A DNA stretch of 64,000 nt from an uncultured Pseudomonadales bacterium (GCA_947503335.1 CANNCY010000004.1:258305-322304); one strand, 5' to 3'; shown: positions 52,487 through 56,223, counted from the stretch's first letter. The notes: generated by a model from the sequence alone, not told the origin. Program-made: numbers and translations.

Positions 52487-54100
52487 ATGCTCAATAAAAA
52501 CGAGGCGAGTCTATCGCCTAAAAGTTATATTGAATCGATTAAAGTATTCGACACTATCGGCATAACTTACCTATGCACGTCGACCGTAATATCGACTCTG
52601 CTCTCCCTCGTTTTACCATTCTCGATACTCATAATTTTTGACCGAGTTGTGCCCAATCAGGCCACAAGTACATTGATGCTACTCTTCGCGATTATCTTGA
52701 TATCTGTTTGGTTAGACAATTATGTTAAGCGTGCAGAACAAGGCTTTACTAATCGCATTACTGAAACCTTTGAGCGACGCGTAAATGAGAAAGTATTTGG
52801 CGCAATAGCAAATACTGATATGGCAAAATTTGAAATGATTGAGCCGTCAGATATCGTTAACCGAGTAGCAACAGTTGGGCTAGTTAAAACACATAACAGC
52901 ACTGACATTATTACAGGTCTGGTGAACGCAATAACCTGTCTGATAGTTTGGTTAACAATACTTGTTATCAATACAGGGGCCGGCACAATCATACTCATAG
53001 CATCTATTGTACTGTTCTTTCTAGCTAAAAAGCTCGGGCAAAATAAACTCGCACAACTATCAAATAAAGAGTCAAAAGAATCAGAAAGTAATGCCAAAAT
53101 AGTAGAGGTGATATCAAGGCCGATAAATGTAAAAAGCGCCTCGATGGAGTACCGACTAGAAAACATGATGAGCGCTATCGCCGAGGATCGAGAAAACTAT
53201 AACGCAAAATTTGAACAGTTAGAAGCTGACTTCTCATTGCGGCTACAAACAATTGGTGCGCTATCGGTTGCGCTCGTCGTGGCGTTTTGTGCTTCATCAG
53301 TAATAGCAGGCGTGACGGGGCAAGGTGCAATGGCTGCGGTGATAATGCTCACTAATAGATACTTCTCACCATACCAACAAGTGATGAGTGCAATTAGTCG
53401 TCGAAAAACAAACCAATGGCATATCGATCGACTTACAGAGTTAGTGGAGTTAGAGCCCAGTTTAAAAGGCGAGCGCCTTGATCAAATCAATAGTATTTGC
53501 GTAGGTGACGAAGAAAAAGGTATTCGATTAAATCGAGGTAACGTTATCTGTGTGTTAGGGAAATCGGCAAGCGGTAAGTCGCTGTTATTAAAAGCGCTGT
53601 CGAGAGAATACGTCAGCGACAAGTCACCGATAACGGTTAACGATACCGAAATGAAAGATATAGACTACGGCTGGTGGCGCGATAACGTTGTGCGAGTACA
53701 TTCGGGCTCTGCGTTTATTGACGGAACGATTGTCGATAACATCACATCATTTCAACCATCTCTAAACAAATCAGCGTTCGCGTTGTGCGAAAGTATGGGC
53801 ATTCGCCATTATATTGATGGGTTAAGACAGGGATTTTATACCCAAATAAAATCATCTTCGCCATTGCCTTTTCCTAGGCAAGTCAAGTATGGCCTGTTAG
53901 CTGTCAGGGCGATGTTAACATACAAACAGGTTTATCTATTCGATGACATTGATCAGGTGGCGGATGCATTATTCCTGGATAGATTTGCGACAACACTGAC
54001 TAGGATAAAAGACCGAACTATTGTCGTAATTGTCGCGAGTGATCTTGACTACGAACACTATGCATTTGATTGTCTCGACTCCAAGAAGATTAGTCTATGA
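52487..54100 (+). CDS. ABC exporter (TMD-NBD half transporter) with degenerate nucleotide-binding motifs, no N-terminal accessory domain
   Basis: The TMD resembles T1SS/bacteriocin exporters (LLSLVLPFSILIIFDRVVPNQ). Walker A is intact (GKSASGKS). The other positions, aligned by eye to HlyB, are degenerate: Q-loop reads VHS, signature LPFPR instead of LSGGQ, Walker B VYLFDD (Asp in place of the catalytic Glu), H-loop VASD (no His). Confidence 0.75.
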   Translation: MLNKNEASLSPKSYIESIKVFDTIGITYLCTSTVISTLLSLVLPFSILIIFDRVVPNQATSTLMLLFAIILISVWLDNYVKRAEQGFTNRITETFERRVNEKVFGAIANTDMAKFEMIEPSDIVNRVATVGLVKTHNSTDIITGLVNAITCLIVWLTILVINTGAGTIILIASIVLFFLAKKLGQNKLAQLSNKESKESESNAKIVEVISRPINVKSASMEYRLENMMSAIAEDRENYNAKFEQLEADFSLRLQTIGALSVALVVAFCASSVIAGVTGQGAMAAVIMLTNRYFSPYQQVMSAISRRKTNQWHIDRLTELVELEPSLKGERLDQINSICVGDEEKGIRLNRGNVICVLGKSASGKSLLLKALSREYVSDKSPITVNDTEMKDIDYGWWRDNVVRVHSGSAFIDGTIVDNITSFQPSLNKSAFALCESMGIRHYIDGLRQGFYTQIKSSSPLPFPRQVKYGLLAVRAMLTYKQVYLFDDIDQVADALFLDRFATTLTRIKDRTIVVIVASDLDYEHYAFDCLDSKKISL

Positions 54101-56223
54101 CTAAATTTGTAGAGTTCGACGCAATTGACGATCGTAGAGAGCTATTCTATAGCTGTTTTACTCAAGGCAGTTTAGAAAATCTCTATCTTGCCTTATCCGA
54201 AGTGTTAATACGTGTGTCGTGGGAAGGTACACCAGAGCTACTTCGCGATAACTATGTTAAGAAAGCAACCAGTGTCGACACATTTGAAGAAACACTAGAA
54301 CGGCTGGGGTATAAAGTAGAGCGCTCTAACTTGCGACTAAATCGCCAAGACCTACAAAATGCCGTGCCTTGCCTATTATCCGTAGACCAATTAAAGGTAG
54401 TAGCAGTTTCGTGCCACGACGAACATGTGGTGCTTTACGACTATGCGAATGGAATATTCATTAACGAACCTTATACCGATCAAGAAATTCTTGTTAGCAC
54501 GATTACCCATTATTCAAGAACGTATAGAGATTCTGATGCTGAGCGAAAATCAGATAAATGGGTCAATCATCTTTTTTTCGAGCATTTTGACGAAGTCAAA
54601 AGTTTGTTCGTACTAAGTCTAGTTATAAATATACTCGGCGCAGTAGGCCCATTTTTTATCATGGGCGTGTATAACTTTGCTGTACCATCAGAAAGCTACG
54701 GAACGCTTATTTGGCTCACTATTGGCTCTATATTCGTAGCATTTCTAGAGTATATTTTTAAGCTACTTCGCATGCGGATATTGTCGACATCTGGTAAAGA
54801 GTTGGCGATATACATTTCTTATCACGTGACTAACAAGTTACTTTGGCTCCCGTACAAACTAACATCAGGTGCAGGAGCTAACGCACAGTTGACTCGACTA
54901 CGTGATATAGATCAATTTCGTAAGCTTGTTACATCAGAATCGACCATTAGCTACTTTGATATGCCGTTCTTTTTTGTATTCTTAATAGCGATTGTACTGA
55001 TATCAGGCAAGGCAGCACTTACCGTTGTAGCTGGTGTGTTACTGATATTCGCCTTTGGTGCTTACACACGTATTGCGTCAGGGCACGCGCAATCAAAAAG
55101 CTCAAAAGCGAATTCAATGGCCACATATCAATGGTCAGAAATGATTTACGGAATTACGTCGATACAAGGGCTGCCAGCAACCACTGTTATGTCAGACCGA
55201 TTTAAAGCTGCGATGGAGCAAAGCATTAACGATGGAACAGTGTTAGCAAATGAAAACTCAAAAAATCAAGGCTTCGGACAAGCGCTTACGCAGACAATAG
55301 GTGCTGCCAGCATCGTCATCACTGTATTGGCTGTCATTAATGGCGATGTAGATGCAGGTGCAATGATGGCTGTCATCATATTGGTCTGGAAGGCAATAAC
55401 GCCATTGATGGGTATATTTAATTCTCTTTCAAAATTCAAACAGATTTCTGCATCAAGTGCGCAAATCAATGCACTGATGTCTATGCCAGATGATCGTTTA
55501 AATATGGAGAAATCACTACCCCTAGAAATGGCTGATGGAACTTACACGATAGACAATTTAAGCTTTAGACATCCTGGTGCGCCCAAAGGTCTAACCCAAC
55601 TTGCGTTTAACACCAAGCCTGGTGAAAAAGTAGCAATTGCAGGGCCTTCTGGATGCGGAAAGACATCACTACTAAATATACTCTTTGGCTTAATCGACGC
55701 CTATCAAGGTGAGGTTAAGTTATCCAATTTAAATATTCGGCAATTTAATAGCTTCAGATTACGCCAGGCCGTTGGCTACGTGCCGATGGACTTTACATTC
55801 TTTAACGGTACTTTACGAAGTAATTTCGAGCTATACAATGGCGCTTTCGAAGAAGAGGTAATGCATGATTGGATTAAACGATTCGATATAGGTAAGTGGT
55901 TGCCTTCGGGATTGGATACAAAAATAAATACAGCTTTCATTGAGGAGCTACCAACAAGCGTTAAAGAGTCGTTACGTATATCGATCGCATTTGGTCCATT
56001 AAACAAAGGTGTATATTTAATAGATGAGCCATGCCTTGGTGCAGGTATTGATGCAAAGCGCATTTTCACATCTATTTTAACAGACCTAATGAGTCACAAG
56101 ATGGTGGTCTATAGTACTAATGATAAGCAGTTAATCACTGCCTGCGACAATTGTTTGCTTCTCGATAACGACGGGGGGCAAAAGTACTATGGATTTCCTG
56201 ACAAGGTGCTATCGACATTGTGA
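54097..56223 (+). CDS. ABC exporter with N-terminal C39-like domain (HlyB/LapB-type T1SS ABC), partly degenerate NBD
   Basis: The start overlaps the upstream ABC stop (ATGA). The N-terminal domain of about 140 aa has a C39-like layout (…LERLGYKVERSNL…VPCLLSVDQLKVVAV…VVLYD) but no HFVV-type His. Walker A GPSGCGKTS and Walker B VYLIDEP are intact. The signature position reads LPTSV, the Q-loop VPMD and the H-loop STND. Confidence 0.8.
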   Translation: MTKFVEFDAIDDRRELFYSCFTQGSLENLYLALSEVLIRVSWEGTPELLRDNYVKKATSVDTFEETLERLGYKVERSNLRLNRQDLQNAVPCLLSVDQLKVVAVSCHDEHVVLYDYANGIFINEPYTDQEILVSTITHYSRTYRDSDAERKSDKWVNHLFFEHFDEVKSLFVLSLVINILGAVGPFFIMGVYNFAVPSESYGTLIWLTIGSIFVAFLEYIFKLLRMRILSTSGKELAIYISYHVTNKLLWLPYKLTSGAGANAQLTRLRDIDQFRKLVTSESTISYFDMPFFFVFLIAIVLISGKAALTVVAGVLLIFAFGAYTRIASGHAQSKSSKANSMATYQWSEMIYGITSIQGLPATTVMSDRFKAAMEQSINDGTVLANENSKNQGFGQALTQTIGAASIVITVLAVINGDVDAGAMMAVIILVWKAITPLMGIFNSLSKFKQISASSAQINALMSMPDDRLNMEKSLPLEMADGTYTIDNLSFRHPGAPKGLTQLAFNTKPGEKVAIAGPSGCGKTSLLNILFGLIDAYQGEVKLSNLNIRQFNSFRLRQAVGYVPMDFTFFNGTLRSNFELYNGAFEEEVMHDWIKRFDIGKWLPSGLDTKINTAFIEELPTSVKESLRISIAFGPLNKGVYLIDEPCLGAGIDAKRIFTSILTDLMSHKMVVYSTNDKQLITACDNCLLLDNDGGQKYYGFPDKVLSTL

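Follow-up and report, generated by a model that had tools for sequence, protein, structure and literature searches.

We analysed a stretch of 64,000 nucleotides (nt) from an uncultured Pseudomonadales bacterium (GCA_947503335.1, CANNCY010000004.1:258305-322304; hereafter the window), which carries two adjacent genes, ABC1 and ABC2, encoding ATP-binding cassette (ABC) half-transporters of a presumed type I secretion system (T1SS). Both products match Pfam ABC_membrane and ABC_tran, i.e., a type IV exporter transmembrane domain (TMD) followed by an ABC nucleotide-binding domain (NBD), but the ABC_tran bit scores are unusually low (34 for ABC1 and 59 for ABC2). As the two proteins are only 22% identical, they are ancient paralogues. 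An original prediction, made from the sequence of the window, had described two open reading frames (ORFs) overlapping by ATGA and bearing degenerate NBD motifs. All of these elements are real, as judged from the ORF calls, the sequence and HMMER alignments: the observation was largely right, and the feature is real and conserved. The coordinates of the pair, of its motifs and of the neighbouring genes are collected in Table 1.

Table 1. Positions in the window of the ABC1 and ABC2 genes, their motifs and the genes around them (aa, amino acids).
Feature	Position	Strand	Remarks
ABC1, half-transporter of 537 aa	52487..54100	+	Six-helix exporter TMD and NBD, without N-terminal domain; ORF and Pfam
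ABC2, 708 aa	54097..56223	+	N-terminal C39-like domain, TMD and NBD
ATGA, ABC1 stop / ABC2 start	54097..54100	+	Read from the sequence
ABC1 Walker A GKSASGKS, residues 358-365	53558..53581	+	G358, G363 and K364 invariant in family alignment
ABC1 C-loop equivalent FPRQV, residues 462-466	53870..53884	+	HMMER alignment to P-glycoprotein and HlyB
ABC1 Walker B VYLFDD	53930..53947	+	Catalytic Glu replaced by Asp487; Asp-Asp pair invariant in family
ABC1 H-loop equivalent VASD	54032..54043	+	His replaced by Ser518 here, by Asn (SNK) in family
ABC2 C39-like domain (CLD), putative	54097..54591	+	AlphaFold2 model and Foldseek; without catalytic Cys or His
ABC2 Walker A GPSGCGKTS, residues 516-524	55642..55668	+	G519, G521 and K522 invariant
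ABC2 Q-loop equivalent VPMD	55780..55791	+	Gln replaced by Met564 here, by Phe in family
ABC2 C-loop equivalent LPTSV	55948..55962	+	Family consensus LPNGx-QQ
ABC2 Walker B VYLIDEP	56011..56031	+	Asp643-Glu644-Pro645; invariant in family alignment
ABC2 H-loop equivalent STND	56113..56124	+	His replaced by Asn675; profile alignment to PrtD 5l22
Hybrid histidine kinase (NIT, HAMP, HisKA, HATPase, REC)	56220..58769	+	GTG start overlaps ABC2 stop (GTGA)
Hybrid histidine kinase	58785-60137	-	Pfam HisKA, HATPase_c, Response_reg; overlapping operon with H-NOX
H-NOX	60118-60654	-	Pfam HNOB, E 2.6e-39; overlapping operon with OEP and REC
TolC-like outer-membrane factor (OEP), 444 aa	60651..61985	-	Pfam OEP, E 5e-46; ortholog of the OEP of the operon
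REC-domain pseudo-kinase, cut by window end	61985..64000	-	Frame open to nt 64000
Cadherin/VCBS-type adhesin, 6,990 aa, presumed substrate	31348..52320	-	Divergent from ABC1; giant cadherin proteins flank the system in relatives

Nucleotide-binding motifs of ABC1 and ABC2

The motif registers of both proteins were set by HMMER alignment to solved ABC proteins, and the family motifs were tabulated from 63 ABC1 and 64 ABC2 sequences. For ABC1, the alignment upheld the intact Walker A, the VHS Q-loop (with Ser406 in place of Gln), the VYLFDD Walker B devoid of the catalytic Glu and the VASD H-loop that had been read by eye. By contrast, the C-loop (signature) had been placed at LPFPR, whereas the stretch aligned with LSGGQ is FPRQV, two residues downstream. 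Across the family, ABC1 proteins have a GxSGSGK[TS] Walker A, a P-F-S-R-Q-V C-loop, an invariant hhhhDD Walker B and an S-N-K H-loop, and the Q-loop Gln is absent. The ABC1 of the window departs from this consensus by a Ser to Pro substitution in the C-loop (FSRQV to FPRQV) and by an Asn to Ser substitution in the H-loop. Of the canonical motifs, ABC1 thus retains Walker A only and is predicted to be a non-catalytic subunit; a non-catalytic partner had been one of the possibilities raised in the original prediction, and ABC1 has such a profile. The Arg of the FSRQV C-loop is conserved within the core family; an arginine-finger role for this residue was considered and left aside as speculation, since outgroups vary at this position (R, K, N, A, P or S). 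In the AlphaFold2 model of ABC1 (pLDDT 80.5), the NBD is modelled as a complete domain, with blocks at ∼85-92, and Foldseek searches returned TM287/288, HlyB, TAP, PCAT1 and PrtD with TM-scores of 0.65-0.78 (0.70-0.78 for HlyB, PCAT1 and PrtD).

For ABC2, intact Walker A and Walker B motifs, the VPMD Q-loop and the STND H-loop were likewise confirmed by HMMER alignments. The C-loop was more difficult to place, as single-sequence alignments shifted by two residues, yielding LPTSV, the initial reading, or TSVKE. The comparison of the family profile with PrtD settled the register: it aligns LPNGV with LSGGQ, and the window's counterpart of LPNGV is LPTSV. The family motifs of ABC2 are GPxGxGKTT (Walker A), IPF (Q-loop), LPNGxQQ (C-loop), IIIDEP (Walker B) and T-T-N-D (H-loop). 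Relative to this consensus, the C-loop of the window has Ser instead of Gly and Lys-Glu instead of Gln-Gln. The Asp-Glu-Pro of Walker B is at least 90% consensus over the 64 sequences and invariant in a 23-sequence alignment; the mean column identity of the ABC2 family is 65%. Of the canonical motifs, ABC2 therefore retains Walker A and the Walker B Glu only. Mis-registration had been named as what could overturn the description of the two NBDs; neither HMMER nor profile alignment reveals a canonical LSGGQ or H-loop His in either of them, and the pair does not present the canonical set of LSGGQ, Walker B Glu, H-loop His and Q-loop Gln.

ABC2 had also been described as carrying a C39-like N-terminal domain. 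At the sequence level this assignment found no echo, as there is no Pfam C39 match to the N-domain and as its family profile yielded only chance matches (E ∼0.4) against PDB sequences. At the fold level, it stood: the best Foldseek matches of the AlphaFold2 model of the domain (pLDDT 80.5, pTM 0.75) are the CLD of HlyB (3zua, E 9e-4), the C39-like 3b79 of V. parahaemolyticus, LahT, PCAT1, HlyB and ComA. The entries 3zua, 3b79, 6mpz and 7sgr are matched at E ∼1e-3 with TM-scores of 0.41-0.55, and over all top matches the E-values range from ∼1e-3 to 3e-2 with TM-scores of 0.39-0.55. No Cys or His is conserved in the alignment of the N-domain, and the CLD of the window is 25-30% identical to those of its relatives. 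There is moderate support for the N-domain of ABC2 being a catalytically inactive C39-like domain.

We then compared these motifs with those of 109 NBDs extracted from 143 listed representatives outside the core family. SGGQ was found in none of the 109 and L[PS]xG in 73 (e.g., LPRGIRQ, LPNGVRQ, LPNGFRQ), but most retain the Walker B Asp-Glu (78/109), the Q-loop Gln (80/109) and the H-loop His (59/109). More distant relatives, labelled LapB, are canonical (LSGGQ, Asp-Glu, His). The non-LSGGQ C-loop is thus an ancestral trait of a large LssB-related clade which, in other respects, seems fit for catalysis. Because it is common to this wider clade, a non-LSGGQ C-loop alone is no evidence of an unconventional mechanism. 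Consequently, the description of both C-loops as non-canonical stands, but the unconventional mechanism that had been deduced from them does not follow, as the outgroup NBDs keep the other motifs. The ABC1/ABC2 family is set apart by additional losses: both subunits lack Gln and His, and ABC1 also lacks Glu.

A conserved, probable secretion operon, split in the window

ABC1 has 111 clear relatives (35-46% identity), all generically named, in Vibrio, Photobacterium, Thaumasiovibrio, Shewanella, Aliagarivorans and Paraferrimonas, and the ABC2 set runs parallel. Scanning the contigs of species-representative genomes with the ABC1 family alignment identified 66 true loci (an earlier scan with ABC1 alone as query gave no matches), and exact-protein matches added three loci of the V. 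alginolyticus group. The resulting 69 loci extend to Aliivibrio, Psychromonas and relatives; a Clostridium locus (L070, 24% identity) encodes an unrelated ABC and was not retained. The ORFs of every locus were classed by BLASTP, and 68 loci were informative, one (L040) being cut by a contig end. The 68 loci, from ∼66 species, all have the same gene order: an AprE/HlyD-type membrane fusion protein (MFP, ∼445 aa), a ∼740-aa membrane protein ending in a receiver domain (REC protein), a TolC-like OEP, ABC1 and ABC2. A giant Cadherin_4/Cadherin_5/Big_9 protein is encoded alongside, mostly divergently, in each of the 68. In the REC protein, the His of the DHp-like H-box is replaced by Tyr or Phe and the ATP-binding region is degenerate, whereas the receiver Asp is intact. 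The ratio of nonsynonymous to synonymous substitution rates (dN/dS) spans 0.00-0.16 in the NBD of ABC1 and 0.01-0.05 in that of ABC2, values similar to those of the TMDs. Both NBDs are therefore under strong purifying selection and are working domains rather than decaying ones.

A literature search retrieved no paper describing the ABC1/ABC2 family, and the names in databases are generic: the family is uncharacterised, although a T1SS ABC heterodimer is in itself a known kind. Two candidate systems were set aside, that of P. tunicata BapP (MacB/LolD-like, unrelated) and D. vulgaris DVU1017 (an ordinary single ABC). Two observations on the related loci may be added. A conserved ∼120-aa ORF without Pfam match (L001:4650-5018) lies between the adhesin and MFP genes in loci of the V. 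harveyi, V. alginolyticus and V. splendidus groups and was not detected in those of Photobacterium and Shewanella. In Aliivibrio (L052-L054:16100-19200), a second, ordinary-looking T1SS pair (a ∼570-aa ABC and an MFP) is encoded a few kb downstream of ABC1/ABC2.

Do the two half-transporters work together? When the ABC1 profile was searched exhaustively with HMMER, the core family came first, followed by many proteins of ∼1300 aa that matched twice. Eighteen of these fusions were split. The N-terminal half scored better with the ABC1 hidden Markov model (HMM) than with the ABC2 HMM in 17 cases, and the C-terminal half scored better with the ABC2 HMM in all 18; in 16 of these C-terminal halves the alignment begins in the N-terminal (C39-like) region of the ABC2 profile. 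The halves are thus in the same order as the ABC1 and ABC2 genes. One fusion (L072:3052-6957) is followed by an AprE-type MFP gene, with an OEP gene nearby, and two (P0127 and P0130) score 762 and 926 bits against TIGR03375, above its cut-off. Natural fusions are joined by strict co-occurrence, since no locus has one of the two genes without the other, be the latter intact or a fragment, and by the overlap of 4 nt, which is kept in 46 of 63 related loci. Taken together, these results provide good comparative evidence that ABC1 and ABC2 would form one transporter. They also agree with the heterodimeric T1SS exporter of the original prediction, given the MFP, OEP and giant adhesin of the informative loci. 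Half-transporters are able to homodimerise, and ABC1 and ABC2 might be separate homodimers with different jobs; but fusions that preserve the gene order, the absence of solitary genes and the conserved overlap all speak against it, and in an ABC1 homodimer the catalytic Glu and the substrate-docking CLD would be missing and both C-loops would read FPRQV. We regard this arrangement as extremely improbable. As to the fusions themselves, their clade seems large (763 representatives at E<1e-30), and those inspected (P0127, P0128, P0130, P0131 and others) join an ABC1-like half, a C39-like domain and an ABC2-like half in a single chain and have LPxGVRQ and (L/F/M)(P/S)NGFRQ C-loops with mostly canonical Walker B, Q-loop and H-loop.

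In the window the operon is split, ABC1-ABC2 being on the plus strand and the REC and OEP genes on the minus strand. The OEP scores 423 bits with a family HMM that was built including the window's own sequence. Alignment of the REC fragment with its orthologs begins at about their residue 67, so that ∼66 N-terminal residues (∼200 nt) would lie past the window; the 572-aa ORF listed for this gene begins at an internal ATG. The fragment has the family motifs GFEIRA (GYEIRG in relatives), FMDCIMPGMGG and IIGATALTS..GMDYVISKPY. The statement that no HlyD-family ORF exists in the 64 kb is literally true: none was found with Pfam on the other large ORFs or with the family MFP HMM (E<=10). However, the conclusion that no MFP gene is nearby does not follow. 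All relatives carry the MFP gene directly upstream of the REC gene, and it is precisely the latter that is truncated at nt 64000; the apparent absence is therefore most probably an edge artefact. Very probably, the MFP gene lies directly beyond nt 64000, at a predicted position of roughly 64.2-65.6 kb on the minus strand. Linkage to an MFP is thus observed in the 68 informative loci and in the sister locus L073 and predicted for the window genome, whose OEP gene is inside the window. More generally, one should beware of reading a biological absence into a partner gene that is "missing" where a window ends.

L073, a single metagenomic contig, has a split layout like that of the window: the adhesin and ABC1-ABC2 genes are on one side, and the OEP, MFP and REC genes are convergent on the other strand, with MFP kept directly upstream of REC. 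In this locus (L073:8274-17644), Walker B of ABC2 reads LLLIDN (Glu to Asn) and ABC1 has Asp-Asp, so that neither subunit has a catalytic Glu; its adhesin, MFP, REC and OEP genes are all intact.

The split raises the question of whether the system is decaying or re-wired in the window genome, the pump being perhaps inactive or using an MFP from elsewhere. ABC1-ABC2 are apart from REC/OEP only in the window and L073 (in the other 68 informative loci the operon is undivided), the window motifs are substituted beyond the family consensus (C-loop and H-loop of ABC1, C-loop of ABC2), and its CLD has the low identity to relatives reported above. Nevertheless, all ORFs are intact, including the adhesin gene of 20,973 nt, the 4-nt overlaps are kept, the REC and OEP genes retain the family motifs, and L073 combines the split layout with the full gene set. 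We consider decay or re-wiring very unlikely.

The presumed substrate is the adhesin encoded divergently from ABC1. Beyond one chance match, it has no RTX nonapeptide repeats (GGxGxD), and no signal-like N-terminal sequence was seen by eye. Its N-terminus is very acidic and Ser/Gly-rich, and within the protein there are LamG-like inserts and long stretches that are nearly duplicated. Its last ∼170 aa, which are acidic, are shared with orthologs from Shewanella and a metagenome-assembled genome (motifs DYTAAPGG, GDLSQPV, DGSSAD and DWT), which is consistent with a family-specific secretion signal. Downstream of the adhesin gene and on the same strand (27422-31303, minus), four genes encode proteins of 389 aa (weakly cadherin-like), 155 aa (without match), 415 aa (trypsin-like peptidase) and 313 aa (with an FHA domain), which might serve to process or anchor the adhesin. 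LapG/LapD-like genes were not seen.

On the other side of the pair, the hybrid histidine kinase gene that overlaps ABC2 is of a type that frequently neighbours the ABC1/ABC2 system. An H-NOX gene together with a kinase gene is likewise found next to the system in three other lineages: L041 (Oleiphilaceae), L050 (Paraferrimonas) and L063 (Psychromonas). The H-NOX linkage suggests nitric oxide (NO)-responsive control of adhesin export. A promoter and terminator scan of positions 52200-58900 was uninformative, with fewer promoter-like sites than in shuffled sequence, and it revealed no terminator between the genes. Two antisense ORFs (52720-53166 and 55776-56069) were taken as shadow ORFs. The G+C content is 0.41-0.42 over the ABC, kinase, H-NOX, OEP and REC genes (52001-64000), lower than within 1-52000, where it is 0.46-0.51 in the adhesin gene and 0.44-0.50 upstream. 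The ferrochelatase encoded at 4916-5977 (minus strand) is 61-63% identical to proteins of named Alteromonadales and Cellvibrionales and 78-80% identical to two ENA fragments, and the window proteins that were looked up are all singleton clusters.

Two predicted, atypical ATP sites

From the geometry of ABC exporters, the NBD dimer would contain two composite ATP sites (site geometry and the logic of asymmetry are reviewed in PMC7756269). Site 1 would consist of Walker A and the Asp-Asp pair of ABC1, without Gln or His, facing LPTSV of ABC2. ATP would probably be bound at this site and not hydrolysed, as in the degenerate site of TM287/288, TmrAB and TAP. Site 2 would consist of Walker A, Asp-Glu, Asn and Met of ABC2 facing FPRQV of ABC1; it is the sole plausible catalytic site, but it would be atypical and probably slow. 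With moderate confidence, we favour an asymmetric, obligate heterodimeric T1SS ABC exporter in which one site would be dead and the other atypical and possibly slow. ABC1/ABC2 would be the inner-membrane exporter of a T1SS formed by MFP, REC/pseudo-kinase, TolC-like OEP, ABC1 and ABC2, and its presumed substrate would be the adjacent 6,990-aa adhesin. The CLD of ABC2 would dock the unfolded substrate, as the CLD of HlyB does. In ABCC1, replacing the consensus-site H-loop His by Asn or Gln retained transport (PMC7756269). As an H-loop Asn supports transport in that protein, slow hydrolysis at site 2 is plausible.

Several observations weigh against the asymmetric exporter. Site 2 has neither an H-loop His nor a Q-loop Gln, nor does the partner C-loop supply Ser-Gly-Gly, and the C-loop of ABC1 has lost even the family Ser in the window. 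The window proteins are only 43-46% identical to every family member, the host, a marine gammaproteobacterium, being a deep outlier in the family. Finally, the lack of any catalytic Glu in L073 weakens the case for essential hydrolysis at site 2.

The main rival is that neither site hydrolyses ATP, so that binding or occlusion would be only a conformational latch or the pair would serve as a regulated conduit. In that case something else would power or license export, for instance the Ca2+-driven folding of the adhesin outside the cell, the proton-motive force or phospho-signalling via REC. The H-loop His, Q-loop Gln and Ser-Gly-Gly are lost in both subunits and family-wide, the whole apparatus is kept in L073 despite Asp-Asp in ABC1 and Asp-Asn in ABC2, and a REC/pseudo-kinase is always encoded within the operon. 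However, the near-invariant Asp-Glu-Pro of ABC2 and the purifying selection on both NBDs speak against a non-hydrolytic pair, and L073 is one metagenomic contig. In addition, the nearest outgroups with similar C-loops mostly have Asp-Glu, Gln and His, so that the ancestor was probably an ATPase, and ABCC1 tolerates an H-loop Asn. On balance, we consider a non-hydrolytic exporter rather unlikely. A bolder proposal, which we hold to be doubtful, is a T1SS heterodimer in which neither site is conventional and ATP binding or occlusion, accompanied by hydrolysis that is very slow or absent, serves as a gate, not a motor, for a megadalton adhesin. Such a gate could be coupled to the REC/pseudo-kinase of the operon and, in the window genome, to an NO-sensing H-NOX phosphorelay, and L073, with no catalytic Glu in either subunit, would be its extreme case.

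The REC/pseudo-kinase embedded in the operon and the frequent flanking hybrid kinases, or H-NOX in the window, suggest signal-gated secretion of a biofilm adhesin.

Comparison with known systems

ABC exporters are considered to require at least one consensus ATP site, and the known heterodimers (TAP, TmrAB, TM287/288, CFTR-like proteins) are degenerate at one site only. The ABC1/ABC2 family occurs in about 70 marine Gammaproteobacteria, Vibrio alginolyticus, V. harveyi and V. splendidus among them; all its C-, H- and Q-loops are non-canonical and the catalytic Glu is present in one subunit only, yet strong purifying selection operates on both NBDs. The family is therefore a natural test of which parts of the canonical site are dispensable, and it bears on how T1SSs energise the export of giant adhesins.

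Among curated families, the LssB/LapB-type TIGR03375 (NCBIfam) scores best for both proteins, but ABC2 (303.6 bits) and ABC1 (133.8 bits) remain below its cut-off of 693.1 bits. With the LssB/LapB type, the pair shares the exporter TMD and NBD and, in the related loci, neighbouring genes for an AprE/HlyD-type MFP, a TolC-like OEP and a giant adhesin; an N-terminal C39-like domain without catalytic Cys is shared by ABC2 only, and at the fold level. In contrast to the LssB/LapB homodimer, there are two different subunits, devoid of LSGGQ, H-loop His and Q-loop Gln.

Like TM287/288, TmrAB, TAP1/2 and BmrCD, ABC1 and ABC2 are encoded by two adjacent half-transporter genes, and one NBD, with the Walker B Glu replaced by Asp and an altered H-loop, would lie opposite a degenerate partner C-loop as in degenerate-site heterodimers. 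TM287/288-type exporters are also among the top structural matches of the ABC1 model. However, the second site of these heterodimers is fully consensus, whereas here it is without Ser-Gly-Gly, His and Gln, and ABC1/ABC2 would sit in a tripartite secretion system and carries a CLD.

HlyB of E. coli (PDB 7sgr, 8dck, 3zua) shares the CLD, TMD and NBD architecture with ABC2, and the full-length ABC2 profile match spans HlyB residues 60-678. HlyB is a homodimer with LSGGQ, Glu631 and the His662 linchpin, whereas ABC2 has LPTSV and Asn675 and would need ABC1. The MARTX system of Vibrionaceae is a T1SS with two different ABC proteins and a very large substrate; RtxB and RtxE are both of ∼700 aa, have N-terminal domains and flank rtxD. 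The analogy with RtxB/RtxE, drawn in the original prediction, is loose: ABC1 has no N-terminal domain, the order of the operon is MFP, REC, OEP, ABC1, ABC2, and the substrate is devoid of GGxGxD repeats.

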